NCBI GenBank assembly: GCA_973895155.1
Contig: OZ316891.1
Location: 124,001-188,000 of the forward strand
Source of the DNA: Marsupella aquatica
Taxonomy: Eukaryota > Plantae > Marchantiophyta
Direction: 5' to 3'
Length of the DNA stretch: 64,000 bases
This document shows, one piece after another, positions 25,158 to 53,221 of this stretch. A program made the position numbers and the translations under genes. Every line of letters starts with the position of its first letter. Within the stretch, counting starts at the first letter, position 1. Under the pieces are notes generated by a model, which had not been told where the DNA came from, made no database searches, and was given only the letters and a program-made list of their open reading frames with translations.

Positions 25158-25471
25158 TCAAGTATTTGGAACCATACATCAGTCAAACATAAGTGTTTAG
25201 AATGACTTAGTTCGAGTCATATGGGGTTTTCCGTGAGTGATTGATAACACTCAATTGACCGCACTAGTTTCCGTAGACAATGCTGTCATTCATAGTCGAG
25301 ACTGAGTCATTAATGTCACAAAAGCACCAATCCAACTAACAATGGCACGATAATAACTCAAAATATGAGCAATCCATAAAAAAAAAGTATTACCCAACAT
25401 CATGTACTCCAAATTGTGGTCATATATTGAAACAATCCTTCACATTTTGAGTCTCAAATTGTATTTGGTAC

Positions 25472-28798: not shown

Positions 28799-31700
28799 CT
28801 ACTCATCATCTTCGTCCATGTCAGCTTCAACCTCTCCCTCATAAGTCTGTCTCACTGTCAAGGGGATGTACTCCCTGGTCCCCTGGCCCCGATGTACAAC
28901 GTCTACTGCCGGCTGTTCAAAGGCCCCATGTGCATCCAAACTGAACTCTATTTTAGTACCCTCCATCCTTCGAACTCTAGGTGAGCTATGGCAGACTACA
29001 CGCCAACCACGAGACTCCTCCACATCTAAAAAAAATACTTGCTCCACTTGACTTGGGAACACAAAAGGCTCCATCCATTCTGCCAGTCTTTGGTTAAAAT
29101 TGACCATTAGAAAGCCATCCATATCCCGTTTCATGGTCGCTCTTGGCCCATGCCAATCTGGCTTCACCCATGAACCTTTCATTAGGATGATTTGTTGTGA
29201 TGTGTTCCCATAATTCAGTGCCCAGATGTCTGCCAACTCCCCAACATATCCCATCTCCATCCAGCCCCTGTTGCTCTGAGCATCTATATGCTCAAACACA
29301 GATATTACCCCCGAATTATATGTCACTAAATGCTTGTCCTCATCATCATGCACACGGTACTGATTCCCATATGCTTTCATCCGTTTATACCGCTGTACAA
29401 TACGTCTGGGAGGCATAGACAAGAGGAGAACATCTCTATCCATGTTTGGGTTCTGCCTGCTATGCTCTCGAATTGTTGTCCTAATCCACTCAGGAAAAGT
29501 AGGGAATGCCTGGTGATTTAACCCTAATTGGGCGGCCTTCTGCACATTGTATTCCCTGCATGATGACAATGAGAACAATTTCTCAATACAATGTACATAT
29601 CCTACCAAAATGGATATGAATAAAGAAGGAATGCAAGGAGGGTGCGGAAACATGAGTACTCACTGCCACCAAGGTTGCATCATGACTGTATTGTGTAAGA
29701 CATATAAGTGTGCTGCATCACGAACTTCTGCAGACAATTGCAAGGAAGTAAAAGCGCCTTGAAGAACCTCTCCAGCCACCCCCTCTTCTTCCTCAGCATC
29801 CCACACCCTGCTCCTAACAGTGTCTACACCAGCCATGTACTCTGTAAGGAACCCCAAGGTCTCTTCTTGAATGTAATCGAGAGCCATGCTTGCTTCAGGC
29901 CTATAATAAGTACGTACATGGCCTTTTAGCAACTTCATGTACCGTTCCATTGGATACATCCACCTTGTACTCACTGGGCCGTAGTGGCCCAGATCTTCAA
30001 CCGCATGGATGATCAAATGAGTCATGACATCAAAAAATGCTGGCGGGAAATAAATCTCCAAGTCACAAAGCACACGCACAGTATCTGCCTTTAACTGAGG
30101 AAATGTTGTAGGGTCCCACACCTTCACACAAATACGACGAAAGATCTGACACAATCTCAAAATGACATTGCGAACTGGTTTTTGCATCAATCCCCTCAGA
30201 CATACTGGTAGAATGTCTTGCATCATAACATGGAAGTCATGAGTTTTCATGCTTCCCAACTTCTTCTTCCTTATATGCTTTGCAAAGGCTCCAGCGTACC
30301 CAGAGGGTACTCTGAACGAACTCAGCCTAGACAAAATTGTGTTCCACTCGTTCTGGGTGCAAACATATGGAGCTTGGTACTTGAAAACCACACCCGGCCT
30401 ATTCTGGGATTCTTGCAGCCAAAGTTGAGGACGAATGCCCTTCTCCTGAAGGTCCTTTCGTACTGCTGCAGTATCGTTGTCCCCCGATAGAAACTTCAAA
30501 AGACTTTCGCATACATTCTTCTCAATGTGCATAACATCAATGTTATGTTTGCTTGGCTCAAAATCCTGCACCCATGAAGTACGCATGATTGCCACAATTA
30601 GGTTCAGACACAAGAACTAAAAACTGTTGTGCATAGGATCTGAAGAGGTTCACTGAGTACAAGTGAATATGCAAATGTTACCTTCCAATACTCCAATGAT
30701 GTGTCCATCATTGTCTGCCTTTTGATGCCATGAGTCTTTGCTGGGTCATCTGGCACGTCTCTACAAGCACCATATTCATCATAAGACACCTTGTTCAGTC
30801 CCCACTGCAGAAGTTGGTCTCTACTAACCAACACAGGAGACTCTCGAAGCTCCCTCTGGTTGTTGAAGTGGGCTATGTGGGATTGCCTGTGCCTGAAAGG
30901 GTGGTCGGCAGGAAGATATCGCCTGTGGCCCTGGAATTTGATACTGCCCAAGGAAACGGACCGTTCAGATGTAACATCTGGGCCACATTGTGTGCAACCC
31001 AGATATCCCTTCCCTACCTGCCCAGATATCATGCTATGTCCAGGGTAGTTTGCTATTGAATTAACACACATTGCACGTAGGTTGAATGTCCTCGGTCTAC
31101 CAGGTCCACAAAGTGCATCAACTGTCATAACTCCATGTGTCCATAGAGTAATCCATTCCTCCACCGCAGGGGCCAACCAAACATCTATGTTTGCACTTAT
31201 AGCAGAGTTTGGGCCGGGAATCATAAGACACAAGATCACAAAAAAACGCTTGGTGGATATCCAAGGCGGGAGATTATAATTTATCAAAGTCACTGGCCAG
31301 CAAGAATACACGTTGTTCTTGTCTCCAAAAGGATTAGCACCGTCAAGGCTTAGACCAAACCTCACATTTCTGCTCTCTGCTGCAAAGTCCGGCCACTTCT
31401 CATCTATGTACTTCCAGTGGTTGGAATCTCCAACGTGACGTTGCAAACCATCTGTACTCTTCTGATCAGAGGTCCAAGTCATCATCTTAGAAATGGATGG
31501 ACACCTATAGAGGCGCTGCAATCTTGGAATGAGAGGGAAATGCCGTAGGACCTTAGCAGGTTGAGTTGACTTCCCCACGTTCTTATATCTGTGCTTTCCG
31601 CAGATAGGGCAGGATAGGCAATCAACATATTCTTTTCTGAAAAGTACATGGCCATCTGGGCATGCATGGATGGACACATAATTCAAACCAAGTTTGCTCA

Positions 31701-32556
31701 TCACCTTCTTTGCCTCATACATGTTCTTAGGAGCAATGTTTCCAGCGGGTAGTACTGTCCTCTGTAGGAACATCAACAACTCTGTTACACATATGTTGGG
31801 CACACGGTGACATCCACATATATTGAGGAACATCACTATGAACCCTAGTTTGGAGCAATTTGCACCACCATACAATGGGGACGTAGCTTCCTCCAAGTAG
31901 GCCCCAGTTCCCAAGAATTGACCATCATCTCCAGCTCCTTCTCCAATGTCAAACTCTTCTTGGTCCGATGGATTTGCACCATGCATGTCTGGTTCTTCGT
32001 CCCCCTGTGCCTCTGCATCTTCATAAAGTGCATCCAGGTCTTGAAAAATGTCGGAAACCATCCTAGGAACATCTGCCCCGTCCTCATTAGAAGTCTCGGG
32101 ACCTCCCTGTGGAACATACTCATCTTCGGCATTGTTGCCTGCATGACCAGTGACGTTATGAAAGAATGCAGAGCGTCTTGCTGTATTCACATTTTCAAAA
32201 TCTGCTCTCCATTCATCATCCGATGAATCCTCTTCCTCTGGCACATTCCACACCCTGCGGATTGGATGTCTTCCATGCCTTTGAAGATGAGAATGCACTT
32301 GGTTCAGGGTCATCGAGTGGTATCCTCGACATTGCATGCAGGGGCATCTCATCCGGGCATTTCTGCCCCGACTTGCTCTAAGCACCTCTCTATTCCACAA
32401 CTTGGAGTCATGACATGTAATCCTCAGTGGGTGATGCAAAGGGAGTCGCACTTCATTGGTATGTCTCTGATTCCTTTGCCCCAACTGTCCATCCTCATTT
32501 GCCTGATCCATACCTTCAGCTGTCGTAGGCACCCCTTGGCTATGTACCCTTTGCAC
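28799..32556 (-). CDS. CACTA TnpD transposase (Transposase_21, DUF4218, DUF4216); exons ~32556-30682, 30565-29665, 29555-28799
   Basis: CPCMQC..HLQRHG, IHACPDGHVLF, LRHFPLIPRLQRLY, FGLSLDGANPF, YNLPPW, IDVMHIEKNVCES, WMYPMERYM, EPFVFPSQVEQVFF. Confidence 0.93.
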
Positions 32557-32904
32557 TAGACAGGCTTATACAATTGCATATTCTAAGTACATGGAGGGGA
32601 CACATGCAAGTTTCATGAAGGAAATATCATAGACGCTAAACACACTCACTATCAAGTCCGCTCTGTGCTGGCGCCCGACCTGCTCACTACAGGCAGCAAC
32701 ATCATAACAGACTTGCTATAATCAGTGAAGTGCTTGGTCGTTGACCAGTCAATGGTACAACGTACATCATACACTGCCATACATCTCCACATGCAAAACC
32801 AAGACATTTGGAGGATGAAAAGGAGTAATGTCTTGTAGACAAAAAATAACACACAAAAGTTTATTTCAAAAATGTAACCGTCTAGCATACAGACAGTTGA
32901 GACC

Positions 32905-33855
32905 TTATTCATAATCATTAGGGCTAATAGAATCATACACACTATCAGAAAACTCTTCATCCGTGGTCTGGAACTCAGAAGTAACATATTCTGGGTCGTC
33001 ATAGGGAATGAATGGCTTTGCTGGCCATATTTCATATAAATCATATTTATGCTCATCTAATCGCATATTTGTTGAAAGTGACTGCCTGACCCATTCAGGG
33101 CAGACCACACGCAGCCCATGTGTGATGAGCCATCGTACTGTGGACTTTCCATACTCTCAGCATGCCTTAGAATATGAATGAGCAATGAGATGGGTGGTCT
33201 CATTAGTGAGCTTCTCAATCACTGTACCACCTCTTCTACTGATCTCCCTCTTGAAACGACAGACCCTATATGGCTTGATAGACTTGTCAAGTATAACAGC
33301 CCTCACACCTCTGAACATGGTACGGTCTGGGATGGGTTCTGTCTCATATGGGATAATGTTGTTGTATACTTTTGTGATCTGGTCAATAGACGGAACCCTA
33401 CTCCCACCTCTCCCTGCAATTCTACGAGCCTTGTGCCAATCTCGACTGTCTTTCATCATTTGGACGCTATTGTACTTGCTCTCAAACAAATTGTAATCAT
33501 CAGGATCTTGGACACTCCCTTTTCTAAGGGAGTCAGACATCCATTCTGCTGAAAGTATTTTGACATGCCTCAAGAAGACTTTGTCATAGAAAACCGACCA
33601 AGATGCCATTTTCAGACAATGTTCCCATGTTTCTGCAATAATATGGGTGACTTCAGTGTCCTGTAGTTGAGATTGTGTCTCTGTACCGTGACACTCAATG
33701 AGTTTTCTCCTAAGGATATCCAATCTTGCACTCTGAATACCTGGGACAAAAAAGACTCTGACCCCTTGGAAGATGGGAGCACACTGGGAAGTTGGAAGGG
33801 GGACAAGTTCACGCTTCCGTTTGGAAGGCATGATGCCTCCTGTAATAAAAGCCAA
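32905..33855 (-). pseudogene. Tandem BRCT-domain protein (Pol lambda-like BRCT) with one in-frame TGA at 33157-33159
   Basis: IFQGVRVFFV...VTHII...ILSAEWMSDSL and MFRGVRAVIL...GGTV...TTHLI...VVCPEWVRQSL; the two ORFs are in frame, 16 codons apart. Confidence 0.8.
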
Positions 33856-34734
33856 TAGAGAAATACCAGTGCCCGCGTTGCCTGTCCCTCAATGCTTCAG
33901 CCCAATGCTCTCTGATGACACAAAGTGCACTCTAGCTCCCTGATTGTGGCACACATGACAAGATCGAAAGTCAATACATGCAGTAAATCCCAGCACGGAG
34001 TTATAGGACAAACCATATACTCTTTAGTCAAATTATTTTCACCATGTGTTCATGTAATTACATTGATGAAAGTAGAGCGACAGCCTACTTCAGTATACAC
34101 ATAGCATACATGTGGCCCTTTATATTGTCTTGTCTGCATATAGCCTGAATTCACATTTGAATACCTGTATCTTACGTGACAGTGGTGGGGACTGAGAATG
34201 ATATCATTCAACTGCCCAATTTCCAGTCACATCTGTAATTGTACAAATGTATGGGTCAGGCACACGACTTAAGATGACCTTTGTTAAGAGCAGAAACAAA
34301 TACATAATTTGAGCTATATATGTATTTTCATACTCCAATGCATGCATGTTGTTTTACTCCAGGCAACAGTCTGCTTGGAATCTTTAGTCTTTCACAGTTA
34401 TGGTCTCTTGCCATACACATGATTCACTCAAAGTGGAAAAAACACAGACATCCTTGTGCAGGCCCTAACTTTGAAATTGCAATTAACTTAATCAGTCTTC
34501 AAAAAATAAGTTAACTTAGTTAGTTTTGGAGGTGTCATCGTGTACGAAAGTATAAGGACAGAACCATGTATGGCTGAACTGAAAAAGCAAGATCCAAATT
34601 TACTATGCAGTCACAAAGTCGATCGATAGCTCACTGTAGCGGGGTGTGTCTGAGCTATGGTTGACAGCGCAGTGAGGTGCCCACTTCATTAAAAAGTCCA
34701 AAATGTGAGATGTGCAATGTTGGATTCATTTAGC

Positions 34735-35457
34735 TCAGCCTGTTGGTGCTGATCCACTTGTTTTGTTGCTGGCGCTGGAGGTGTCATCCAGCAATAGCCA
34801 AGTCAAGTGGTCTCTCGCAGGGGTCTGCAAATGAGGGTCAATCGTATGGAGGTGGCAATACAAAAACCACCTATCAACCCCGTGTGCAGAGTGGGAATAA
34901 ATTTGGCGGTCACATGCATACCCTTCTGCCTGAAGGGCTAGTAAACACTCATGGTGCCAGGCTGTGGGACATCTGGGACAATGGACCATGTCTATCCAGT
35001 AGTCATCATCAGGCTCCCCACAAGCAGGACAAATATGTAGTGGGCAAAGGGAGTTATCATGGGGCAAGCATGTCAAACAAAAAAAATGAACACAAAACCT
35101 GTCAGGACATTTCCGCAGCTCTGGTTGATCCCCCTCAACAGTGCCGTTTGTGCCACATTGAGCACACTTGCTGATATTAGTGGCACAATCAAAGCAAGTC
35201 CAAGCACCCCGATGGTCCCCCTGGAGCCCAACCCCAGGGCATGCATTTTGTGGTGCATAAGTGGACCAGGAATTGACATGGAATTGTCTCAGGCAGGGGC
35301 CATCACACATGACCAGGTCACCTCCATCATCACAAATGGCACAGACATGAGCGGCTTTCTGATGAATTTGTGCATTGGACCAATGATGATGTCTACTCAT
35401 GGAATCGTGCCTCACCTGTGATCCGCCTCTGTGTGCTGACCGTTTTGGACGAGCCAT
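34735..35457 (-). CDS. Stand-alone EDM2/NSD-like composite PHD-finger protein
   Basis: CAICDDGGDLVMCDGPCLRQFH...WTCFDC...KCAQC...KCPDRFCVHFF...CPLHICPAC...CPRCPTAWHHECL follows the Cys/His spacing of plant EDM2 PHD fingers. Confidence 0.82.
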   Translation of the reverse strand: MARPKRSAHRGGSQVRHDSMSRHHHWSNAQIHQKAAHVCAICDDGGDLVMCDGPCLRQFHVNSWSTYAPQNACPGVGLQGDHRGAWTCFDCATNISKCAQCGTNGTVEGDQPELRKCPDRFCVHFFCLTCLPHDNSLCPLHICPACGEPDDDYWIDMVHCPRCPTAWHHECLLALQAEGYACDRQIYSHSAHGVDRWFLYCHLHTIDPHLQTPARDHLTWLLLDDTSSASNKTSGSAPTG

Positions 35458-37789
35458 GACTTCTACCCCGATAGAAAACAACACAATATATGGCCAGAGT
35501 CAGTGACGTAGTGAAGCATGCAAAGAATGAGAAACTAAAACTATGAATTAATACCAAAGATTTGAGAAACTGTAATTTCAAGTTCTAAATTCAAGACGGG
35601 TTGTGTGCATGGAGGAAATTTTAAGTTTAGGACTCTGAGATTGTACACAGGCAATTACTGAACGATTTCTGCCATTAAAGGTGGGCAATTGTTGGGCTAG
35701 CATTTTCACACATTAATTTTTATAAATTTTGGGGGCCACGAAAATAAGGGGAACCAGTAGAAGAATTCAAAAGTCCACAGCAGGACATTGCTCAGCACAG
35801 CAAGAAGGCCAGTAGAATACAATCGACACCCCATACATAAAATCCAATCAAATAACCCAAATCCAGTCTACACTTCCATAGTGAAATCCTAGCTTGACCC
35901 TGGCCCCGATCTGAGATTGCTATAGTGATGGGCATGCATAAGAGAGGGAGAGATTTCTATACATACTTGAGGATAAGCAGCACAAACGCTCGACCCTGAG
36001 ACCACCAGTGAAGACAAAGCAATGACAATGTAGAGGGCTCTGAGTGATTATAGACCTCAAGAGTTGACAAAACCCTGGAATGATTTCTTTGTGCCTAGCT
36101 TGGCAAAAGAGAAAGCTCTTGAACGGGTGGGAAAATGATTTGCAAGTGCCACAGACAGAGTGTGGCTCATCAGTTCTGTGGCTCATTAGTTGTTCGTGGA
36201 GGAGTACATTATAGAGTATCACATTTGACTAATGTCCTGTACATTGAATACATACAGTGGCAAAGTAGTCAATGGAAGAGTGACCTGCTCCCTTTGCGTT
36301 CTTCCTGTTGCCGAAATATGAATGTAGAGGTAGAATTGCATGCAGGAAAATTTGAAGTTTAGGGCTATGACATCCATGCTTTGTGCAACCTCTAATCCGA
36401 AAGCCTCCAAAGACACAAGTGAAGCATGTAGGCGCGCGTAATAACTTCTAATTTAGTCATTGACAGTACAAGAGTATACTCTAAAATCTGCGATTCTGAA
36501 AGTACAAGCATTGCAAGCGCGCAGGTCTGAAAAGTTGTTGCAAGACACAAATAAGCACTAAGCGACTAAGGACAGGACCGTTGAGTTGAAATCACAGCTC
36601 AGCAAAGGCAAAGAAAAACCCCCCGCACCCCACCTTAGTTCTGCACAACACTTCTGCACACTAGAATACTAGTGTATAAGATTAGAGCAATTCAAGCCGA
36701 AGCAGAATGAAAGTGCCAACAATATACTGTGATCCCATCTACATTTCCATAGTGAAATCCAAGTTCGACGCCGACCCCGACATGAGATTGCTATAGTGAT
36801 GGGCATGCATAAGAGAGGGAGAGATGATGACACGTACTTGAGGATCGCGAGAGAGAGAAATTTGCAACAGAGAGTGGACACAATGGAAGAGCGAGACACG
36901 ATGGAAGAGCGAGACCGAGAGAGAGGGCGAGAGAGAGTGAGGTGAGAATTCAGCAAGAGAGGTCTCGAATAGGGACAACCTTCTATATATGAACCATAGT
37001 TTTTGCTGTCATTAATTTTCCAGAGTTAAGATGAACAAACAGAGTACAAACAGAGCACAATGAAGCACCACAGTGCGTCGCACGGGACCTCTCACCTCTG
37101 CCTGAACACCAGCCGCACCCAACACCACACCAGAGATCAGTGGTCTTGAAAACAAGTTGACACCCTAAACCTGGCACTTCCAATGTCGCCCGCTCCAATG
37201 TCGCAGCGCATTTTTGTTCTAGCTCGTTCTCCTCTTGACCGAAGAACAACCCAACAAGCAAATGGCGGAAGATGGACGCACTTAGCACCTGGGTGAATGT
37301 GGTCACGTTGCGCTTCAAGTGTGGCCCTAAACCCTTCCTCCTCCCTTCAATCACAGAGAGTCTTCGACCGCAAGAGCAAGAAGCACTTCCTCTCCTCTCA
37401 TCTCCCAATGCTATGCAAGGCAAAGAGGTAAAGACTTACAAAGCTAATGGAGGAAGATGGACCCCCGCACCACGAACTTGGCGTCCGACCCTAAAATTTC
37501 CCGCAATGCCCCCGCAATGCCTTCAGGGAGCACTCGCAAACGCACCCAGCACCCGATTGAATGTGGTCAGGTCGCTTCAAGTGTGGTGTCAAACCCTTCC
37601 TCCTCCCTGAAATCACAGAGAGCCCGACTCACTGCACACTAAGAATCCCATTGTTTCTCCATAAACCTTCGTTCCCTCCTTGATTGATCGACTATCGATC
37701 GCCCCTCTCAATGAGTCGCCTCATTCGCTCCACCTCCCCTCCCCTTTATAAACCCTCTTTGCAGACGAAGACCCTACATTTGCTCCCGC

Positions 37790-37923
37790 GCACAAGGGTG
37801 GAGAGTACTAAGGTTCTCAGCCAGTGACATGTAAGGGGCTCATGTAAGGGGGTACTGCACAACGGTGGAGAGTACTAAGGTACTCAGCCAGTGACATGTA
37901 AGGGGCTCATGTAAGGGGGTACC
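37790..37923. repeat. Two tandem 67-bp copies in the CACTA 5' region
   Basis: gcacaa.ggtggagagtactaaggt.ctcagccagtgacatgtaaggggctcatgtaagggggtac x2. Confidence 0.9.
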
Positions 37924-38775
37924 TCTACTATTTGAAGCTTTCTCACATAAAAAGCTTGAATGTTTGGCAATTGGTGAGTAGCACTCACTCACATAAGAAC
38001 CCTAAACTAAGACAATCAGCTTAGATAGTGGACCTGCCATTTTCCTTATGATGGGATGTTGTAATTAAGTGGTATCCCCCATCCAACTTCAAAGGTGCAT
38101 GGACAACCTTGAACCATGAACAATGTCCCTTGCACCTTGAAGAATGAGTGATTGAAAAGAGTAGGTAAAGTCAACATCGCAAAGGAGTCGCAACAAATGA
38201 GTGGAAACTTTGTGGAAGTGATACTTAAGACATATGTAGTGATAACACCCTAAACTTCCATAACCTTGTCACAATAGTCAATAGTGGTTTGGTAAAAAAT
38301 AGGGGGTATTTCTACTAGTGCCAAATCCAAGAGGGTTGTTTGGATTTGGACCATCCAAATCCAAGTGGGTTGTTTGGATTCGGACCATCCGAATCCAAGT
38401 GGCTTGATTGGATTCAGATGGTCCGAATCTAAGAGGGTTGTTTGGATTCGGACCATCCGAATCCAAGTGGGCTTCTTGTATTAGATTCGGATGGTCCAAA
38501 TCCAACAGGCTTGATTGGATTCGGATGGTCCAAATCCAAGAGCCCTCAATCTCACTTTGACAGTGATTTCTTAAAACAAATTTCATGGATTTGAAGTCCA
38601 ATATGAATTTTCACTCTCCAATGCAGAGAGTGATCTGGTGAATACAACTCTTGCCATTTCAGAGGCAGACTGCGACGATGGGCTCATTTTGGAGGACCGT
38701 GATCCAGGATTTCGGTGAGGACTTGAGTTCTCGCGAGTAAACTTCCGCCTGAATTCATTTAACATTTAGGATCCA

Positions 38776-41700
38776 GTGTTATGTGTCAAGATCAAGACAG
38801 GCAACAACCAAACATTGGTCATCGGACCCGTGGTCTCTGTGGGAATGATAGGAAGAGGAATGAATTCTATCATTGTAGAGGTGTCGGACACGATGAGGTG
38901 GGCAAAGTTGCAACTTCCGTCGAAGGCTTTCTCGGCCGAGTTCAATGTGGATGGTATGCAAGTGGGGAATTAAGTGTGTTGTTGATGGGATTCTTTCCAA
39001 AATCCTACACAAAGGAGAAGATTATTGGAGGACTGAAGGGAATGCTTCCTTTGGACATTTTTTATGGGTTTCTTTATTTGAAACTCAACATTGTAAACAA
39101 CCCATCAAAGTTCTCTCTTCCATCCACATGGACTCTTAACAATTTGCTTGAGAAAGCAGGTCTAGTGTCACCAGACTCAAATGTTTGGATCACCAAGGCA
39201 CTAGCCTTTGCACACACGCTTGACCTGGAAAAAGCAAATCTATGGGTAGAGTCTTTGGTGAAGTTGAGGAAAAGTACACAACCACAGAACATAATTGAGT
39301 CTACGCCAGCCAAAAGAACTCCAGCAACTACGATGGAGACAACACAAACTACTGCAGCAACAACCATGGATAGAGCGGCAGGGAAGCGAAAGCAGAGGGA
39401 GAAGAAGCTTCCGGTTGAGAAACCTACTTCAGTTGAGAAGAAGATCACGGCTCCAGCCAAGAAGAAGTCAAGGGAGAAGAAGAAACAAAAAACCGACACC
39501 GGAGTTGTGAATTCAACTCCTGTAGATTTTTCATTACATGCTGAAGATGAGGGTGATAGGCCACATGCTCCAGAGGAGAAAGACGTCTTAGAAGGGAATG
39601 AAGTTCTTCAACAAATGGAGCAGTACTATACTTTTGGGATAAACGAAATTTTTCTGATCCCAGTTGAAAGTATTTTTGCCGCACCAGCGAGACTATGCTA
39701 TCGGATGATGAATTTTGATCATGTGCAAGACATTGCTGATTCCATGATCAAAACACCTGGGCATGAGCCACATGTCGCTGATTTGATTCCTTTTAACGTC
39801 AAGCGAAGAAAGGTACTCCATTTTGAGAATACGGAGTCGGACCGGAAGGATTTTTTGGCCGGAGTGAAAAAGGGCGAGGTCCAATTTCTAGCCGTTAGTG
39901 GTCAGCACTCTGCGAGAGCTGCGAGATGGATTCGTGATTGGGCAACGAAGGATGCCAAGCTCACCCAGTTGGCCAAGAAGTTAGAATTCAGGAAATCCAT
40001 AATATTGTCTGATCGCACACCGTCTTCAATTCTTGTTGAGCACTCCATGAGATCGAACGCCATCAATAGCACGATGGTGTTTCAGTCTTGCTTTAAAGAT
40101 ACAGTTGTCCATGCGAGGCGGCAGTTTGTTGAATGTGGAAATCCAGACAAACCAAAACATGGCGACAACAAAACAAATGCTCAAGACAACCAAAAATTTC
40201 AGGTAAGAAATGTGATTACTTTGTATGCATTTCTCTACCATAGAGAGTAATTCTATTTTGGATTCGGATGGTCTCAGTCCGACACGATTTGTCAAAGAGT
40301 ATTGGAACTTTTGGAATGTTTAGTACGAGTTTTGTTTTTGATTGAGACCATCCGAATCCAAAACTATTATCGCACATTAGAATCCTTTTTTTCCAACCCT
40401 TGAGTTGGGGATAACTGACTAGCTTTCCTTTTGGATTGTAGGATTGGTTGGCTCTGGCAAGAATGACTATGGGCAGGAAGGACTTGCGAAATGTATACTG
40501 GCTACTTTTTGCGGACAATGATCTTTTTGAGTTGTGGCGGTTAGTCTGTGAGATGTGGTTGCATGGGAAACTTCCTGATGGAGCTGGGATGGAAGGAAAT
40601 AACAAGTCCAAAAAAGCAATTACCATTGCCATGTTTCGTCCCTTTGATGGTGAGTTGATCTCACAGAAAGACATCACAAAAATCCTGACACAAGTGAAGT
40701 CAGGAAAGGCATTGCTGAAGAAAGATGCCACAAATAAATCTGACATACCCTCAATAGAGGAGCTTGCGAAGGATGTGAAAAAAGTGAGGAAGCTCAAGTC
40801 TCTCATTGAAGAGTACTACTTTGGCAAGGATCCAAGGAATTTCCCTTCGGATACCGACTGGAAGAAAGTTGTAGAGGTTCTGCCATTGTTGAGTGTTGAC
40901 GCAGAATTCAAGAGATGCAGAAGAGCGGCTGGTGAAGTTTTTTTGTCAAATCTGTTGAAGCCAAATCATACCAGGGAGAGTGCAATCTTGCCAATAGCTC
41001 TGGTGATGCGCCTTGATGACATTTATTGCCAGAAGTTTGGCGGAGGGACACATTCTCGGAGCCAACCGTGGGTCAGGTTCTTTAGTGACAATCTAATGAA
41101 AATAGTTGATCCACCAGCAATAGAAGAATCATCTCCAACGTGCTCACTTGCCATTGTTGACTTCAGTCGAGATCACCAGAAGCTGTGGATGGAAGCAAAA
41201 GTTTTGGTCTTCTACAATACATTGTGGAGCTACCACAAAATCTTACAATCGTTGTAGCCATAACTGTTCATCCGGGGTCTCTTGCAATGAATGTCCTAAG
41301 CTCACTTCAAAAATTGGGACAAGAGAAATCTCACACGATTCACATTGAGTATGGGAGTTATTCTCGAGAGGATCAACCGCACCCGCTTGATTCATGTTGG
41401 GGAGGCGGAATTGAAGAAGTTATATTCGCAGGAATTTCTTGAGATGAAAATGTCAATTGGAATGATGTTTTCAAACCCAATCACCCAAAGCCAAAATTCT
41501 TTTTTGGTTCAAAAGATACTGATTTTGAGGTCACCAAGATTGACACTGGGAAGGCAAAGGTTGACACAGACGACGTGTCAAAACCCGAAGATCTAAAAAT
41601 GATGCTGACCCCAGAAGAGGCGACCAAGGTTTTGCACATGGCCCCTCGATTTGAGATAGTTGGTGCTCGTGGTGGTTGGGTGAATCCACATGCCAAACCC

Positions 41701-42177
41701 ACGCGGATGATACAGAGGATTATTGAATCCTTGTCAGAAGCTGGAGACTTGATTCTTGATTTTTTCTCGGGTGGTCAAGTGATGAAGACAACATTCTTGG
41801 TGCAACGCGAATGCTTTGTTTATTGTGACTCTCAAGATGAGAGACACTTTGTGGAAGCGTATGCTTCATTCCTTTGTGAGAGGGTCCCCTCAATCAAGGA
41901 AAATTGGGATCCTCGTGGTGGGAGTTCTAGGCATTGGAAACCCACTATTGCGGATGTTTCTGCCAAACATGAATCAGCTGATAATTCTGAAGAAGTGGGC
42001 GCTAAGTCAGTCAAAGATAATGGGGCATCAGAGGTGGCGTATGCAAAGAATTTGGATGACCGTGTAGGTCAAAGTGAAAGCATAGAACCCTACGATGTTG
42101 ATGATAATGTTGGTCTTGCACACGCCCTTCATCAGGTGCAGGTGCCCAAAGTTAGAACTAAGAGAGGCTTCTCTTAG
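38776..42177 (+). pseudogene. ParB/sulfiredoxin-like domain fused to a beta-class N4/N6 DNA-methyltransferase-like domain; intron 40203-40441; probable C-terminal tail at 45471-45682
   Basis: IPVESIFAAP..YRMMNFDHVQDIADSM..QFLAVSGQHSARA (ParB-like); SLAIVDFS, EEVIFAG, NPHAKPTRMIQRIIESLSEAGDLILDFFSGG..QRECF (MTase motif X/I order). Frameshift ~41200 and TGA 41440-41442. Confidence 0.65.
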
Positions 42178-42307
42178 TGCTTGACTCCTTGTAGTGGGCA
42201 TGCCACTCACAATCACCTTCTTATCTCCCTCCTCTTGAACAACCAACCTGCAAACACACCTCCAAGTCTTGTGGCTCCACTCCCACAACAAAAATTGTAA
42301 GGAGTTG

Positions 42308-42325
42308 TCCCCGGCAGCGGCGCCA
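42308..42325 (-). other. tRNA-Asp-type PBS of truncated family B element
   Basis: tccccggcagcggcgcca on plus; 20 nt from the LTR end. Confidence 0.8.
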
Positions 42326-42345
42326 AAAACAAAGGTGGGACTCTA

Positions 42346-45300
42346 TGTCAAACACTTGTCAAGGAGCTTAAGCGGCTTTTCTCCCCAAAAGACTACCTAA
42401 TACCTGCTCCATATCATACCAGGGTCACAAAGGATTGACAAAACTTCTGAAATGTGCCTACAATGACTAATCACTCCATACATAAGTAGTTTCAACTCTC
42501 CACTTCTAGAGAGGTAGTCCCCTTGACTACTTTTGTACTCACACCCTTCCCCTCTCCTCTACTCCCAAGGATCAGCAAGGGGGATCTCCGCTCCAAGCTG
42601 TCACCTTAGAGAAGAGTCTCACACAAACACCCAAGAACCAAAGTACTTTCCTCTTCAAGCTTAAGTCTCCTCAAGACCCTCAAAGTAGTGTTACCCCTCA
42701 ACCTTGCCCCCCCTGGCCTTGGTTTGGGTCCACACATCCCCTTTGAGCTCTAGAGAAGGCTCCTCTATCTAAGGACTCTTCCTCTTGTTCTTACTTCTTG
42801 TTAACACCACACACCAAGCAAAATACTTTCCACCCTCAAGCTATAATCCTCTCTAAGTCTCAAAGTAGTGCTCTACCTTAACCTTGCCTCTTGGCCTTGG
42901 TTTTGTACTAGCACATCCCCTTCAAGCTTAGACCAAGATTACATCATAGCATGGACTCTTCTCTTGCTCTCATATGCTTCAAATGCACTCACACTTAATG
43001 CTCACAATGAAGATTGGCAAGTCTCCTTTTATTGCATCACCTTTACAACAAAAGTTCACTACACATTCTCCACACTAAGCATGGACCACCTCTCCCTTCT
43101 CAAGCTTAGCCCTACCTTGACAAGGTAGAGATTCCACTTAAGAGATGAGACTCCCGGTCCCTAACAAAGGAAAACTTTCTCCTTATATACTATTCTCCTT
43201 CCACACCACACCAAGCTTGACCTGGGGTCCAACTACTCCTCCCCCAAGTCCTCCTAACACACAAAGTGCAACTCTATAGTTTGTAGCTCACTCTACAACC
43301 TATTGCTTGACTCCTTCCAAGCCCTGGAATATGCCACACATGAGTTGCATGCTTTGACCTCCAAACCTGATCTCACTTATGGTCCTCCTCACCAGCTTCC
43401 CAACCCACTTGAAAGCTCGCAAAAAGAGTGAGTGAGTCTCAAGTTGTGTCATGTCAAAGTTGGCTCCTTATTTACTAGTTCTTACTTACTACCCCGACCT
43501 ATCAACTTACTTTCCTTACCCTAACGGTCTTGCACCTTTACCCTCTCTTCTCCATGTATCCTAACTTGGGTGACACGGGTGCAAGAAGTGTCGGCCTAAA
43601 AACCTGGTCTTACTTCCCCCATGCCGACTCCCGTTTGCAAGCTATGGGGACCCCCTTGTGGCCTCCGCTAAAAATATATGAGTGATTATTTTTCTGGGTT
43701 TCCACCTTCACCGAGGGGTGCCTTACCTTCCCCTAACTCAGCACAAAAAAATTTGGGCCCCAACGGATACCCCTAGCTAAAGTTATGCCCATTCTCCCAA
43801 GGCTATTTTTGGTGTAAAGCGGGTGTAAGCGGCGACCCGATTACACTTGAACCTTACACGCCCCTTATGGGGATTTCACGTGTCATGAGGGGAGAGTACT
43901 CTCATTATACTCACATTTCTTATGAAGAAGATTGATAAGGACACCAATTTTTGCAGCATTTTCCTCTCTCTTAAATTCAATCTAAAATGGCAGCATTCTC
44001 TATTGGATCGAATGACAGCAGGTCAATTGATAGCTCAGCAGGTCTACAGCACCCTTCTCAGTCCACCTCCATAGCCATCCAGCCTTGCAAGTGATTCAAA
44101 ATCGCAGCAGAATTTTGCAGCAGCCATAGCCCACCAATTCGCAGCTTGCAGCACAATAGCACAGTAGCAGATTCGAAGCATAGCAACTGATTCGAAGCAC
44201 AGGAGCAGCATCCATAGCTTGATTCCTTCTCAACAACTAGCTCTATTCCAATCACTTAGCCAAGCAGGTCTCTCTTCTCAATTTCGTAGCTGCCCACCTC
44301 TGCAATTTCACAGCTAGCAGCAGCATCCATCAATTCAGCAGCATCAAGGTAGCAGCCAGCCAATTCTCGTGAGTATCTCATGCCTGATTAATAGCAGCAC
44401 CTCTAATCTATTGTGCCGCTGCCATAGCAGCAAGCAGCCTTCCCAATTCAAAGCCAGCCTCCCTATTCCAATCAGCAGCCATAGCTCACAATTCAATTTC
44501 ACAGTAGCAGCTAGGTCAAGTCCTTCTCAGCAGCAGCTAGCTCAATTCAATCCCGCACCTGCCTATTCAGATCAAGAGTGGCCTATTTTGATGAGCACCA
44601 GCCCTTCAATTAGCCCACCTTGTGCATTCCTGCCCATGTCGTGCTTGCCTGACCTCGTGCTAGTCTGGTCGCAGCCACGTCGACACGTTTTGACACTTAG
44701 AAAAATTTTGTTTTCCTCTCAGGAGAAACAGTTATACTGGCCCCTCTTGAAGGCCATTCCATAATTCACTCAAATGTCCAAACATACTTCTGAGCATATT
44801 TCTGGAATCCTTGGACATAGGACTCACTCCTAAATTTATCAAACTCTCTAAATACTCCATAACGACTTTCCTAAAAATACATAAGTTTGACCATATCTAT
44901 TAAAGCGCATTACTATTCCAAATCTTTGTGTTTCCAAAAAGTAACAAAAGGTGACAAATTATTTCTGAGACAATCCAGGGATATTATGGTCTATACTTAA
45001 CTCAATTCTAACCTCGAACCCACAAAATTTACCCCTTGGCTATTTTCTCCGGGGCCCGCTAGTTGGTTATTTTAATTTCTGTCAAAATACTCACAACTCC
45101 TAGGTTGAGACCCCACTTGACTTCATACTTTTTCAGGGTTCCCTAGGGACCTCCCAACACCCATGGGAGAAATATCAGCCAAAAATAAGATGTCAGGTGT
45201 CGGGTCATTTTCCGGTCCCGACTTAGTCGCCTATCCTAACTAAGGGTGGAACATTTATTGCCTACCAAAATCACATTACTTATCCCTTTACATTTGCTTA

Positions 45301-45470
45301 GAACAACACATTTTCTCCCTTCCATGATTTCCTACTAGCCTTTCCTAGTGACTTAGGGTTGTAAACCCTAAGTACTTTGCTAACACTACAACAACTTTCT
45401 TACTATTCCTTGTACAAACAACAAAAAAATTGACAAGTTCCTTGCATACCCTATATTGAGCCGGTCCACA
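42346..45470 (-). mobile_element. Family B 5' LTR (3.1 kb) with PBS and a short leader remnant (~42180-42345)
   Basis: TG...CA ends match solo LTR 51228-53221 in inverted orientation; no second LTR or TSD seen. Confidence 0.8.
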
Positions 45471-45917
45471 GTGGGCCAAATAGAGGCCAAGAAGTTTCAT
45501 TGGATGCTGCTCCATCGATTCTTAACAGGAAGGAGTATAAGAGAGGAGAATTGGGATTGATAACTCCTGTTTGGACGTCACTTTATTGGGTAGAACAAAG
45601 TACTTCAGATGTCAATTTTGAAATCCAAGAGGAGCTGGGTGTTGACATTATTGATGAATACGGATCTCTTTTTTCAGACTGAGATCAAACCGTCTGACTT
45701 TCCATTTTTTCATACCAATCTAAAATACTTCTCGGTCTCACAGAATGCGGTCAGCAATTAGAGCCTCGATATCCACCTACGCTCTTTGGGGCTTCTAAAA
45801 ATGGTATGTAGGTTTTTTTGTTGTTAGTCATTGTCTTGTATTTTTGGACTGAGACAATCTCAGTCCAAAGTTCAAATTTGGTTTTCTTTCTAAGAGTTGT
45901 ATTTGTTGCCCTTGCAG

Positions 45918-46954
45918 AATTGAGACCTTGTCCCATCAAGCGGAAGTTGCTCATTTTGGATCTTAACAAAATACTTTGGGATTCACTTGAATTCCAAAGC
46001 AAGGGCAAATCCAGAAACATTGTGACCCCAAGTGGAGTGCATTGGGATAGATCAAATGGAACTAGTCGCATGTATACAGAGAGGCCAGGGTTCCATGAGT
46101 TTCTAAAGTTGGTTTTTGACCGGTTTGACGTTGCAATTTGGACATGTGCTGGGATGCCGCGGACAGTGAAAATGTTGAACATGATGTTCACTGTTGAGGA
46201 GCGGTTGAAACTGAAGTTTGTATTCACACAGGTGGAAGCCTTTGACACAGGCATTCAAAGGCATGACATTACAAATGGAAAGGCAAATGTGCTATTGAAG
46301 GATTTTCGGGTGGTATAGAGTGCATTTGGAAATCTATATGATGAAACCAACACACTCCTTGTGGATAACTCCCCCTTGAAGGCATTTGCCAACCCAGACA
46401 TGACCGGACTATTTCCAGTGCCCTACACACATGCCAATCGTGGAGACAATTTTCTTCTAACAATTCTTTGGCCATGTCTTGAGAAACTGTCACATGCAAG
46501 TGACATTCGTTGTTATCTTCTCCTAAACTCTCCAAAGTGGTCTCTATTGCACATTAAGAGAGACAAGGAAAAAAATGAGATTACTTATGATCAACTTAGT
46601 AAGAGATGTGCAGCAAAAATTTGGAAGTCACAGTATAGGCATAGTGTGCTGGACCTCAATAGCAATGAGATTCCTTGGGCTATGAAGCACCGTATATGTA
46701 GCTTACGTCCTGAGGTGGAACTTGACGATGCACTTGTCACCTCACTTGCTAGATCATTTGTAGGACGGGAATATTCAGGTCTGTATAGAGAAAATCCCAT
46801 ACACTTTTTGCGGGAGATTATAGCAGTTAGGAACAACACCACCAAATTTCATCTCCCTGAAGATAAAGGGAGTTGCAACCGTGACATTAGGGTAGATAGT
46901 AAAGGAGACAAGGGCACGTGCTCAAATAAATATTGTAAGGAGCACTTTGTTTAG
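45918..46954 (+). pseudogene. FCP1/NIF-family HAD phosphatase-like gene, premature TAG at 46316-46318; small upstream exon 45744-45803
   Basis: KLLILDLNKIL, RPGFHEFLKLVFDRFDVAIWT, LLKDF..V*, ETNTLLVDNSPLKAFANP; the two ORFs are in frame. Confidence 0.85.
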
Positions 46955-47318
46955 AGATCTGACTCATGTTAAGCCCATTAGATAGTAAAAAATGGGTGCC
47001 AGCCCTGGATATTCATTGTAAGTTTGGACACAATTGTATATAATTATTTCACACATTATCAATCAATGGTCCTTGCCTAGGCTTCTTTGTGCGTAAATGT
47101 TTTTACAAGTATGATCTCTATCCCATGGTTCTTTGTGAACTAATAAGTAATATAATACTATTATAATTAATATAATATAATATATTAATATAATACTAAT
47201 CAGATTTGGCCTATAAAGTGTACATTTAGGTATCAAAAAGTGTATATTTGGGCTTCTTAAAGTGTACATTTGGGGACATAAAAGTGTACATTTCAGGACT
47301 GATTTGTGAACAAACGAA

Positions 47319-47344
47319 AATACACTTTTAATGAATAGGCTGAT
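47319..47344 (-). repeat. Right TIR of the Sola-like element
   Basis: aatacacttttaatgaataggctgat followed by TSD cttt. Confidence 0.95.
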
Positions 47345-48375
47345 CTTTGGGATTCCTTTCTGAATACATGATTGATGCTAAGGGAGAGGGAAAACGAACC
47401 TGGGAGTTGGAGGAGATGTTGGCGTTGCAGGCATTGTCTTGGAAGGGGCTACGAAGGAGAAAACTTTGGATTGGTCTGAAATGATGGCCATGCATCATTA
47501 TATATTGGAGAATGAAGAGACAGTGGCTCCATGGTACAGGTACATAAAACCCTAAACCCTCCTATCCTTAAGCACATGGATCATAATTATGCTGCCCCAT
47601 TGTGTTTGTATATTCATGGTGGATCGTGCACTAATGTCTTCAGTGTTGTTGTTGCCATGTAGGATATATGATGCTACCAATGAGACCGTTACCAAACAAA
47701 GAGTGGATTTCTGGAAGGAATGGATGAGGAAGCCTGCCAATCGAAGAAAACTAGTGGAATTTCCCCTTGACTGCCAAGAACTGCCACCTTTCAGGGAATG
47801 GTTTCAAACATTAGTCAATACTGCGCCTGGTGGACGTGGGCTGGTGAGATGTTGGAAAGACCCAGACACTGGACTCTTATATAAAAGTGAGTGGATTGTA
47901 CTGATATGTACTTTTCAGGTGTGTTTGGAAGTTGATATTGTACTTGGAAATGAAATTCATTAAAGTGCTTTGGTGTTGTGTGTTTGTTTAGTGGTTCCAT
48001 CAGGATCTGAAGGCAGATCAGGCCAATTTGACATACTACATTCTAGAGGATCTTCAGGTAATACAAATCTGCTCGTCATGCATATGCAAACTGTGCATTG
48101 CTCAACTTTTCAATGTACATATTTTCTGATTGAATGCATGTGTGTACCCTAAAAGGCGGGGCCTCTGCGATGCGCAAGGATCGAAGGCATGCTAAGAAGA
48201 TGTTTGATAATGCTGCTAAAACATGAAGGAATCAGGGAGACTTGCCCAAACACATTAAAGTGAGTATTGTACTTTTTTTGAATGTAGATTTAGACATAGA
48301 TCCTCTCTGTTATTGCGTGTATAAAACCTGGACTGTGCATAAATTCCAGAGTTATTAATTGACATTGTATGTGAA

Positions 48376-50584
48376 ATGCAGATTTATGACAATGATATTG
48401 ATGATTCTGATCCCAACAAACAATACTGGCTAGAGGAACTTTGTGGCAACGTACTCAGAGTCTTTGATGTATCAAAGCCAAAATGGACTGATCATCCACG
48501 AATTCATACGAACAGTCTGTGGGATAACATGGCAGCTGAGTGGGAGTATGTGGGTGGGGAATTTATTTTGGCAAAATTCCAGAGTCATTGTCGTAGCATA
48601 TTTAAGAGAGAGCGCCATAAAATGCATATTTACTAGAAGAAAGCTTGCAATGAGGATCCAACCAAACCTGGGCCATTTGGTGTTGATCCAAAGAAATGGG
48701 CAGCTTTGGTATCTCATTTCACCAGTCCATCAATGATATCTTTGAGTAAACAGATGACTAATAAAAGAGCACGAGTGCAAGATACCTCTCACTTTGGAAG
48801 AGGAGGGCATGCTGCAGCAGCAAAGAGAATGGTAAACTATCACTATCATTTTCACTATCAATTTTGTCTTGTTTGTGAATCTTGACCATAGTTTATTATG
48901 CTTTAGGACATCAGTTGTAAGGTGTAATGAGATGATATGCAAAATTTGATGTACTATACTTAATAAACATCCTGTAGGTTGGTAACATTCATTAAACTAT
49001 CTAGCATTTGAGACTTTGAAGCTTTCCTTATATGTCCTTCAAAGATTGATAAAAGGACTTGTCACGCAACGGGTCACATCATTTCAGGACTCAAAAGGAC
49101 TCTAAAAAATGCATTTTAGACAATGAAATTTTACCAAAGCATGCATACTAATAGCATAATCTTATATTTCAAAACTTAAATAGTGACAAACACTAAACCT
49201 TTAATATGTACAGGACAAAAATATCAGTAATTTTGGCTTATTTAGGGCCATCAATAACAGGATCCCTTAAAACAGTTGAAAACTTGATGTATCTACATGG
49301 TGAGGTAGGTTACACCATGTAAAATAGTATTGTGGAAAAATTAGACTTAAATGTCTTAAGATAAAATCATGTTGAATCTTTTTCCATGTTACGGAAGTCA
49401 TTTTTCACTAAAAAAGCATGTTTTTGAGTCCTGAAAGTGGTTCCTGCGAGGTACACCAAATTGTGAATGAGGCCAAACATGATGACTACGTGGATGGCAC
49501 ATCACTCCAGTAATGCACAAGTTCCAACATTTGTGCCTAGTCACAGTAAGGTGCCTACAGCTACCAAAGAAGGTAGTAGAAAATGATCTTTTACTTTTCC
49601 AGTGATAATGAAGGTAAAATTCTCTATCATGTATTCACTGTCCATTCAATGTAATTATTGTGGTGTATATATGTCATTGTATGTTTAAAATTTCCAGCCC
49701 ATGGCAGAGTACTAGGTTTTGGGCGGGTCCTTTGCAAAGCGAATAAAAGCTCTACTTTTTTGTTCTGGCCCAATATAGGCATGATTCCCCCGTGTCCTTT
49801 GGACCCAGACTATAATGTTCTTGCATGTTTCTAGTGTGATTATATGTTGTTGGTGTATATATGTTTGTTTATGCATTTCTCTTGTGTGTGTTTGATGACA
49901 GCATCTTTAGGGGAGCCTCTCGTGTCGGCGGGAAGACCAACTGATATAGCCAACAACATTCTGAAGCAAAAAGAATTGGAAGTCAACCTATTGCCATCTA
50001 AGTTGCCCAAAGATGCCATTTCAGATGCCTTTCAGTTGCCTGAGGATAAGTCAATTGAGTTGACACCAGATAAAACCCCAGAATCATCTGAGTTGCCAAA
50101 ATATACTCCTGCTCCAAGTGAGCAGGATGACACTCCATCAACAAGAAGGGGAAAGAAGAAAAGGAAGAAAGGATCTTCAACAAATGCATCACCAGCACAT
50201 AAGAAACCGATTCAATCTCCTAACCCCATTGCAAAGGTAAAAGTGTTCTTTGATTTGAGTGTTCTTAGATTGTATCTTTCAATTTGTGTTTATTGCATTT
50301 TTAACAAAATGTGTTGTTCACATTTCGCAAGAGGAGATTTAGTGAAGATGAAGAGTGTTGTGGACAATTCCATGATAGTGGCAGAAGGTGAGGTGACAGG
50401 GCTGCTAGGAGAAGATAAGTTCCATTGTGCAGATTTTGAAAGCCCTTTCTTGCGAGTGCGTGTGATTGAAGTGTTTCTAGATGTGGCATTGTCATTTGCT
50501 AATGCAGGGGAGAACCAGTCTAAGTTATCTCATGTGAAGGGGATGAATGCCCTATGGAACTCTAGATTGCTCAAGAAACAGTAG
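48376..50584 (+). pseudogene. TnpA-like exons of the outer CACTA with C-terminal DUF8039-like domain
   Basis: WLEELCGNVLRVFDV...WEYVG...IFKRERHKMH parallels 26940..27599; terminal IVAEGEV...LRVRVIEV...ALWN; premature stops. Confidence 0.75.
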
Positions 50585-51227: not shown

Positions 51228-53221
51228 TGTGGAATGGCTCAAGGGAGGCTTGAGTAGGAAATGCGTCAGTTTTTTGCTTTCAAGGAGTAGTAATTACATA
51301 GTTTAGTGATTAGCGGAGTTGTTAGGTTTAAGGTAACTTAATAACTAGGGAAGTAGAGTAGGGAAATAAATTGAGGGAGAGGACATGTTTCTCTAAGAAG
51401 TATCAAGAGTTGAGTAAGTTATTTGGTAAGGGCGGAAAAAAGTTACGGTAGTCGGCAAGTCGGGCCGAAGGCATGACCGATACTTTTGAGTGATAAGTTT
51501 TGCTAAGACTCACCCTATAGGTGCTAGGTAGTCCCTAGACCACACATAAAAGTCACAAAGTCAAGTGGGGTCTTAACCTAGGAGTTGCAAGTATTTTGGC
51601 AAAACTTAAAGTTACCAAATAGCGGGTCTCGGGAAAAATAGCTGATGGGAAAAGGTAGGGGTTCCAAGTTGCAAAATAGGTTAAATATGGTCCACTCTAT
51701 CCCTGGAAACTTGTGGGAGAACTTGGTTACCTTTGGTTACTTTTTGGGAGCATCTCAAAGTTGAGAAGAATTTTGGAAAACATAAGAATTAACCCTCTTT
51801 ACCTAATTTTAGAAAATTGGTTATAGGGTTTTGTTTAGATCTTAGTAAACCAGGACATAGCCCTATGTCAAGAAAATCTATGGATCTACTCAAAAGTCCT
51901 TTTGGCCTTATGGGTGATTTTTGGCGGTGGGTACAATATGGGCCGGGGAATTATAGTTTTTCCCAAATAACGAAATCCGACTAAGTGTAAAAATGCTTCG
52001 ACGAAGCTACCACAAGGCAAGAATAAGTCAAGCACAAGGGCGGCTAGGAGATGGTTGAATAGACCAGGCAATCACAAGGTGAAGGGGCTTGAGTGGGAGT
52101 GGTAGTTAGTTGGACTTTTGTTGTAGTGTGACTTTGGTAGTTAGTAGGACTTTGGTGATTGGACCTTGGTCCTTGGTCCTTGGTCCTTGGTGGGCTACCT
52201 TGGTCCTTGGTGGGCTACTTTGGTCCTTGGTCCTCTACCTTGGTCCTTGGTCCTTGGTCCTTGGTTCTTGGTGGGCTACTTTGGTCCTTGGTCCTCTACC
52301 TTGGTCCTTGGTCCTCTACTTTGGTCCTTGGTCCTTGGTCCTTGGTGGGCTACCTTGGTGTGGTGTGGAAGGAGAATAGTATATAAGGAGAAAGTTTTCA
52401 TTTGTTAGGGACCGGGAGTCTCATCTCTTAAGTGGAATCTCTACCTTGTCAAGGTAGGGCTAAGCTTGAGAAGGGAGAGGTGGTCCATGCTTAGTGTGGA
52501 GAATGTGTAGTGAACTTTTGTTGTAAAGGTGATGCAATAAAAGGAGACTTGCCAATCTTCATTGTGACCATTAAGTGTGAGTGCATTTGAAGCATATGAG
52601 AGCAAGAGAAGAGTCCATGCTATGAGGTAATCTTGGTCTAAGCTTGAAGGGGATGTGCCAGTACAAAACCAAGGCCAAGAGGCAAGGTTAAGGTAGAGCA
52701 CTACTTTGAGACTTAGAGAGGATTATAGCTTGAGGGTGGAAAGTATTTTGCTTGGTGTATGGTGTTAACAAGAAGTAAGAACAAGAGGAAGAGTCCTTAG
52801 ATAGAGGAGCCTTCTCTAGAGCTCAAAGGGGATGTGTGGACCCAAACCAAGGCCAGGGGGCAAGGTTGAGGGGTAACACTACTTTGAGGGTCTTGAGGAG
52901 ACTTAAGCTTGAAGAGGAAAGTACTTTGGTTCTTGGGTGTTTGTGTGAGACTCTTCTCTAAGGTGACAGCTTGGAGCGGAGATCCCCCTTGCTGATCCTT
53001 GGGAGTAGAGGAGAGGGGAAGGGTGTGAGTACAAAAGTAGTCAAGGGGACTACCTCTCTAGAAGTGGAGAGTTGAAACTACTTATGTATGGAGTGATTAG
53101 TCATTGTAGGCACATTTCAGAAGTTTTGTCAATCCTTTGTGACCCTGGTATGATATGGAGCAAGTATTAGGTAGTCTTTTGGGGAGAAAAGCCGCTTAAG
53201 CTCCTTGACAAGTGTTTGACA
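51228..53221 (+). mobile_element. Family B solo LTR
   Basis: TGTGG...TGACA flanked by 5-bp TSD CACAA (51223-51227, 53222-53226). Confidence 0.92.
52163..52358 (+). repeat. (CCTTGGT)n minisatellite just upstream of a TATA-like box in solo LTR B
   Basis: Many CCTTGGT units mixed with GGGCTA/CCTCTA, then gtatataagg at ~52379. Confidence 0.9.

Follow-up and report, generated by a model that had tools for sequence, protein, structure and literature searches.

A decayed, intron-bearing gene for a methyltransferase-like protein was found as cargo of a DNA transposon in the liverwort Marsupella aquatica (assembly GCA_973895155.1, contig OZ316891.1). The stretch analyzed, called the window, comprises 64,000 nucleotides (forward-strand positions 124,001 to 188,000), and positions within it are used throughout. 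The gene (38773–42107 plus 45470–45682) lies between the terminal inverted repeats (TIRs) of an outer element at 6087–47344, which measures 41.3 kb, or about 12.7 kb without three nested insertions; an earlier interpretation of the letters alone (the sequence-only reading) had rightly put it in a plant transposon. The gene structure, its breaks, the host element and the loss of the catalytic motif across the family are established, as is the fold insofar as a predicted model of a natural relative shows it. We see about an even chance that the intact product was a disarmed beta-class methyltransferase fold with a probable ParB-like domain that bound the element's own palindromic arrays and did not methylate them.

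The gene is made up of the following parts; natural relatives are cited by number (P0004, P0028, P0135).
38773–40202, plus strand: N-terminal coding exon with a basic linker and the likely ParB-like domain (ca. 39624–40000, motif SGQHS); frameshift near 38950.
40203–40441, plus strand: phase-0 GT-AG intron with two palindrome-like motif copies (40260 and 40339); join matched by P0028.
40442–41050, plus strand: helical middle domain, 43% to P0004; all-helical at high confidence in the P0135 model.
41051–41910, plus strand: predicted beta-class amino-methyltransferase-fold domain, with LAIVDFSR (41147–41170), NPHAKP (motif X) and DFFSGG (motif I).
42108–45425, unstranded: insertion or insertions of long-terminal-repeat (LTR) type in the gene's acidic linker; its limits are approximate, and no clean target duplication was seen.
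45470–45682, plus strand: the gene's conserved C-terminal domain, ending ...DEYGSL; 39% to residues 613–675 of P0004 (E 5e-9), found in 12 relatives.

Four breaks interrupt the present copy: 1-nt frameshifts close to 38950 and 41208, a TGA at 41440 and the LTR-type insertion (ca. 42108–45425); the sequence-only reading had correctly placed a frameshift at about 41200 and the stop at 41440. In other copies, seen as contig variants, an extra base is present at both frameshift sites and a sense codon at 41440. No full protein can be obtained from this particular copy under any reading; 38773 is the exon limit given, the true start codon not being fixed. The LTR-type insertion was recognized from a fall of coverage depth in the last bin and from an 870-bp, 99% copy at 52354–53221, and a motif resembling a primer-binding site was seen by eye within it near 42315. 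The final ca. 70 nt of the range originally assigned to the fusion (38776–42177) probably belong to this insertion and not to the gene. When the breaks were bridged with X, the read-through of 1103 amino acids (aa) matched the natural protein P0135 in a single alignment (33% over 686 aa, E 1.5e-100) that takes in both the ParB-like and the methyltransferase-like parts, and the intron join was matched by the natural Calypogeia protein P0028 (47% over 309 aa). Because the read-through is collinear with P0135, and with P0028 across the intron, the fusion of the two parts is taken to be real.

When 1.84 billion cluster representatives were searched by profile, 124 matches were obtained at E ≤ 0.001, most of them fragments; natural uninterrupted relatives of 901–1009 aa exist. 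Intact members include P0135 and the Calypogeia protein CAM6123984.1. Twenty of the 124 were looked up, including eight from Riccia sorocarpa and two from Calypogeia fissa, and a separate Calypogeia cluster of five was found besides these; all relatives with an organism name are from liverworts (Calypogeia, Riccia). Word-index searches gave no longer relatives, which were later recovered by the profile search. A pattern search of viral contigs and a protein search of JGI metagenomes returned no relatives, the best phage tblastn matches reached only E 0.7–3, and one metagenome pattern match (L001) was rejected as a chance match. Parts of the window are present in eight sequencing runs from five organisms (half or more of its words in three of the eight), and contigs of five runs align to it with many variants (X1–X5; X6 is sparse). 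In a tree of 21 family members, each filling 200 or more of the 286 columns, and 10 phage rows, the window's protein clusters with P0004 of Calypogeia and with P0010 (support 97/96), and the family is split from the phage enzymes at 100/100, with no donor indicated.

The sequence-only reading had proposed a prokaryote-type beta-class amino-methyltransferase fold, and this was borne out. The motifs it quoted were all located: NPHAKP...LILDFFSGG..QRECF at 41683–41819, SLAIVDFS at 41144–41167 and FLAVSGQHSARA at 39885–39920. On the window's protein, PF01555 scored 27.5 bits against a cut-off of 26.7 (E 3.6e-6, motifs X–I only); the family profile matched RsrI at E 1e-9, and a degenerate two-motif pattern had one match in the window versus none in 100 shuffles. 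Structural comparisons were made with an AlphaFold model of P0135 built from a 66-row alignment, in which the predicted local distance difference test (pLDDT) is mostly above 90 at residues 280–750; a single-sequence fold (pLDDT 35) was of no use. Residues 463–758 of this model aligned to CcrM with Z 17.6 (root-mean-square deviation 3.8, 224 residues aligned), to MboIIA and BceJIV with Z 16.3, to PvuII with 16.1, to RsrI with 15.9 and to the rotifer N4CMT with 15.5, compared to 8–11 for MT-A70 proteins and at most 5.3 for unrelated folds. The model thus has a permuted Rossmann fold, with the catalytic half preceding the half that binds S-adenosylmethionine (Z 15–17.6 to nine beta-class entries; Foldseek E 4e-7). 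The Atlas model of P0004 had TM scores of 0.62–0.64; its top rows include phage clusters that join ParB_N to a methyltransferase, and three of its six rows are clusters with ParB_N in 12–96% of members. As a prediction from the model, the assignment of the natural relative's domain to the beta class is solid. The fold and the motif order (IV–VIII, X, I, II) are those of M.CcrM, M.RsrI, M.MboIIA, M.PvuII and phage ParB-methyltransferase fusions. Unlike these enzymes, to which identity is 7–13%, the family has D-F/L-x-R for DPPY/SPPY and GG for GxG, and it has extra helical, acidic and C-terminal domains and an intron.

Judged from the aligned sequences, the catalytic motif is lost throughout the family. 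SLAIVDFS had been noted where DPPY or SPPY was expected; the window reads DFSR at motif IV, and [DSN]PP[YFW] is present in none of the 36 relatives (out of the 124 matches) that cover the position, one of these rows being mis-registered. Asp is present there in 32 of the 36, followed by F or L in 33, with R, K or H at the fourth position in 32; positions 2–4 are variable, giving 20 different 4-mers. When the family was aligned, profile to profile, with 10 phage enzymes (overall E 1e-9, carried by motifs X–I), LAIVDFSR fell on the LxxxDPPY strand, with the Asp residues of DFSR and DPPY in the same column. Among close copies, variants in LAIVDFSR were silent in 4 of 4 cases, compared with 7 of the 26 variants tabulated outside it (Fisher p 0.012). 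This silent-only variation, together with the absence of the canonical motif from all 36 relatives, shows that DFSR did not arise by decay of the catalytic site. DPPF occurred in just one match, a 1598-aa protein with three PF01555 domains that was matched over 30 positions. Motif I (DFFSGG) is exact in 29 of 56 sequences and one residue short of GxG, the acid position of motif II is Asp in 19 of 49, and the Lys of motif X (HPxxKP) is kept in 53 of 54. PF01555 matches in liverwort genomes should not be taken as writers of N4-methylcytosine (4mC).

A mobile relative of the 4mC writers of Marchantia and bdelloid rotifers had also been envisaged; as regards function this was not supported, since those writers carry TSPPY or SPPY and none of the 36 relatives do. 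Marchantia MpDN4MT1a/b are described as low-copy host genes with TSPPY, proven 4mC activity and no extra domains (bioRxiv 2021.02.12.428880), and bdelloid N4CMT as a low-copy host gene with SPPY, a chromodomain and proven 4mC activity (PMC8885841). The present family shares with them a prokaryote-type beta-class fold in a eukaryote (Z 15.5 for N4CMT; by description only for MpDN4MT1), but it is many-copied transposon cargo. The absence of DN4MT1-like proteins (TSPPY/SPPY) from the 124 matches argues that the family and DN4MT1 are distant.

A ParB-like domain is likely in the N-terminal exon. The resemblance to ParB/Srx claimed earlier held for the motif (FLAVSGQHSARA is present), but the ParB fold is weakly supported and no ParB profile matched in Pfam, PHROG or NCBIfam. 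The P0135 model, at pLDDT 45–80 in this part, fits the order strand-helix-helix-strand-strand-GxH-helix, and a phage model labelled "ParB/Sulfiredoxin" aligns over 713 columns of a Foldseek comparison with the whole P0135 model (E 6.5e-6). When the whole model was compared with PDB folds, no ParB entry was listed, which is not evidence against the fold. Atlas language-model neighbours of the ParB-like part scored 0.95 (fungal clusters including DUF3723) and 0.92 (ParB_N). All five sequences compared have S[GR]QHS, with Ser in place of the nucleotide-binding Arg of what we take to be the ParB/Srx motif, G-x-[HR]-R; the ParB-like domain may therefore be disarmed too. Matches of this part to rhinovirus VP1 (E 0.014) were rejected as chance. 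DUF3723 is described as conserved cargo of Starship elements, and its place among the nearest neighbours of the ParB-like part (39624–40000) hints at a recurrent ParB-like cargo of large eukaryotic transposons.

The host element, with its nested insertions left aside, has the following features.
6083–6086: left 4-bp target-site duplication, the same four bases being found at both element ends.
6087–6380: left 26-bp TIR and 22-bp subterminal repeats.
6600–7445, minus strand: open reading frame (ORF) of 281 aa without a Pfam match, downstream of and overlapping the transposase frame.
7405–10428, minus strand: open DUF7869 transposase frame of 1007 aa (PF25273, E 3e-43), on the strand opposite the methyltransferase-like gene.
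22339–23560: 66-bp tandem array with the palindrome TTGGATTCGGA-N3-TCCGAATCCAA (candidate binding sites).
24629–24890: left half of a 34-bp palindromic array, split by a nested CACTA element.
38321–38545: right half of that array, directly upstream of the gene.
45812–46954, plus strand: NIF/FCP1-like phosphatase-fold gene (PF03031) with one stop at 46316.
47173–47348: right 22-bp subterminal repeats, 26-bp TIR (to 47344) and 4-bp target duplication (47345–47348).

The 26-bp TIRs are perfect. By eye, the empty site restores the in-frame peptide E-S-L-G-F-L-S-E-Y-M of a DUF4218-like CACTA protein; the inner CACTA has a similar peptide, E-T-L-G-F-L-T-E-Y-M. A target duplication of only 2 bp (AT) was rejected, because with 4 bp the broken frame is closed and no residue is added. 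The TIRs and 4-bp duplication fit the definition of Sola, the superfamily being judged on these ends; Chapaev elements likewise make 4-bp target duplications. Sola elements are described as having TIRs and a 4-bp target duplication (PMC10741241). The palindromic arrays sit between the divergent transposase and methyltransferase-like genes, and 60 of the 61 palindrome half-sites in the window fall within the element's own DNA, some of them in the intron. In contrast to the dead cargo gene, the transposase frame is wholly open; repeated beta-rich domains make up the first ca. 350 aa of this frame and also occur in an ORF at 49835–50584. FCP1-like and methyltransferase-like domains are fused in P0066 (Riccia), P0106 and P0120. 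FCP1-type phosphatases have the catalytic motif DxDxT; over 45917–46954 the FCP1-like gene reads DLNKIL in its place and relatives read DVEGL, so that this gene, too, may by its sequence be a pseudo-enzyme, the second in the element. A short plus-strand ORF at 24463–24592 follows a CT-rich stretch, has a GTAAGT donor-like end and lies just before the 34-bp array; it is possibly the first exon of the methyltransferase-like gene, which would place the array and the nested CACTA inside intron 1.

The architecture is less new than had been implied, an algal Sola transposon with the same design having been published. Sola1-1_Ec32 of Ectocarpus (21.5 kb) is described as carrying a 1104-aa gene for a ParB-like and N4C/N6A methyltransferase protein opposite its transposase, and similar proteins are cited for green and red algal transposons (PMC12477816). 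The likeness, which is one of architecture only and by description, extends to the two-domain design, the length of about 1100 aa (1104 there, 1103 here), the gene's orientation opposite the transposase and a large TIR element with nested insertions, along with a 4-bp target duplication as in Sola. The present case differs in its land-plant host, in the family-wide loss of the catalytic motif and in the FCP1-like neighbour or fusion, motif IV of the algal protein not being stated in the passage describing it. To this the window adds an element with defined ends in a land plant, the loss of motif IV counted across a family, an FCP1-like partner and a candidate for the target sequence. Literature searches returned no account of a land-plant family, but the Ectocarpus paper escaped them as well, and their silence does not establish that the family is unpublished. 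Self-modification was left open in the algal report; the evidence from land plants argues that, in this branch at least, the catalytic motif was dropped and the fold retained.

If the intact protein did bind the arrays and not methylate them, several steps may be envisaged. Beta-class methyltransferases dimerise, and the dimerised fold could then read two inverted 11-bp half-sites. The ParB-like domain could bridge the arrays or spread along them between the divergent genes. Binding would shield the sites from host silencing by 5-methylcytosine (5mC) or keep the transposase promoter open, and the acidic linker, C-terminal domain and FCP1-like neighbour might recruit or decoy host transcription factors. 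By analogy, such a mode of action would resemble that of VANC, but with prokaryote-type parts. VANC proteins are anti-silencing proteins of Arabidopsis VANDAL transposons (PMC10398659); they, too, are transposon-encoded, with internal non-coding tandem repeats as likely targets, a functional analogy only, whereas the VANDAL host is Mutator-type and no link in sequence or fold is shown. If 5mC shielding is true, VANC-like anti-silencing would have been reached a second time by an unrelated route, and the protein might serve as a compact, sequence-specific epigenetic tool. Natural uninterrupted proteins, an element-confined candidate palindrome and hosts close to the tractable Marchantia now supply material for a test. 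Inactive transposon-borne methyltransferase folds have a precedent in DIRS1 retrotransposons, where the N6A-methyltransferase domain is described as inactive in all copies; unlike the present one, it is a group-2, PCIF1-derived domain inside a retroelement polyprotein (PMC4738411). Fungal TET/JBP proteins are described as further transposon-borne epigenetic cargo.

Several observations count against this non-methylating, array-binding reading. The arrays could be bound by the transposase instead. For the ParB-like part, the DndB match (E 0.035) is below cut-off, the Atlas ParB_N row has just 122 of 256 features in common and the P0135 model stays at pLDDT 45–80. The N-terminal half of the methyltransferase-like domain alone gives the same motif IV register to the phage enzymes only at E 0.13. 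The conservation of the motif IV Asp (32/36), the motif X Lys (53/54) and DFFSGG (29/56) would also be explained by an active enzyme. Finally, the mapping to an element covers the window's copy alone, and many of the 124 relatives are fragments that may be pseudogenes.

A broader scenario is conceivable, although we lean clearly away from it: liverwort Sola-like elements would have carried a phage-type ParB-methyltransferase since before the split of leafy and complex-thalloid lineages, with D-F-x-R as a re-tuned site that writes 4mC or N6-methyladenine (6mA) by an unknown chemistry or that flips and shields palindrome cytosines, and with the FCP1-like protein completing a self-contained anti-silencing kit, the first in land plants made from restriction-modification parts.

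It is unlikely that intact copies are simply active amino-methyltransferases that use a new D-F-x-R motif to write 4mC or 6mA on their own palindromes and so block 5mC silencing. Such activity would account for the retention of the whole fold in the P0135 model and for the conservation of the motif IV Asp, motif X Lys and DFFSGG loop across Calypogeia and Riccia. The aromatic residue of motif IV stacks on the flipped base, however, and it and both prolines are replaced in 36 of 36 relatives; positions 2–4 vary among 20 different 4-mers, and the GxG loop is shortened. Self-modification is proposed for such proteins in the Ectocarpus paper (PMC12477816), but conversion of SPPY to APPA abolishes the activity of rotifer N4CMT (PMC8885841).

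We consider it quite unlikely that the product is a transposition cofactor like TnpA of CACTA elements, which would bind internal repeats and assist the transposase in pairing or cutting the element's ends but would play no part in silencing. ParB-like domains do bridge DNA, and DUF3723, the nearest named Atlas neighbour, is described as conserved Starship cargo; the cargo is also fixed opposite the transposase both here and in Ectocarpus (PMC12477816). The palindromic arrays, however, are central and not subterminal, and the ends bear a different 22-bp repeat. An inactive partner or decoy in the manner of METTL14, steering or blocking an active host or element methyltransferase (e.g. of DN4MT1 type), is improbable: METTL14 and other inactive partners are described as having the same fold class, and Marchantia, also a liverwort, has an active beta-class 4mC enzyme (bioRxiv 2021.02.12.428880), but the element contains no active partner gene and DN4MT1-like proteins (TSPPY/SPPY) are absent from the 124 matches. 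That the whole family is neutral passenger DNA whose function was lost long ago is very improbable, since natural uninterrupted proteins of 901–1009 aa exist and the motifs are kept at 20–45% overall identity, although this copy has four breaks, most matches are fragments and 19 of 37 coding variants in the best-supported rows alter a residue.

Two further blocks are nested in the host element.
10470–22303: gag-bearing, retroelement-like block that repeats every 4983 bp, foreign to the host element.
24891–38320, minus strand: complete CACTA element of 13.4 kb with 31-bp TIRs, encoding Tnp2, DUF4218, DUF4216 and BRCT and PHD cargo.

The Tnp2 CACTA, although adjacent, was rejected as the gene's host because it ends at 38320, upstream of the gene, and is nested in the palindromic array, into which it was inserted without a clean 3-bp duplication. 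Its cargo consists of a BRCT-domain frame (33157–33888) and an NSD-like PHD-finger frame (34735–35499). The retroelement-like block repeats its 4983-bp period in tandem at 100% identity, with an inverted 98–99% copy at 54397–58070, and is either a very recent duplication or an assembly artefact. An older CACTA is interrupted by the host element (ca. 5950–6086 and 47345–50584, plus strand); a DUF4218-like frame and, near 48400–48830, a TnpA-like remnant were recognized in it by eye. At 60668–63724 (plus strand) lies an open Ty3 gag-protease frame of 1018 aa, the DNA of which is 68% alike to the gag ORFs at 12427 and 17410.

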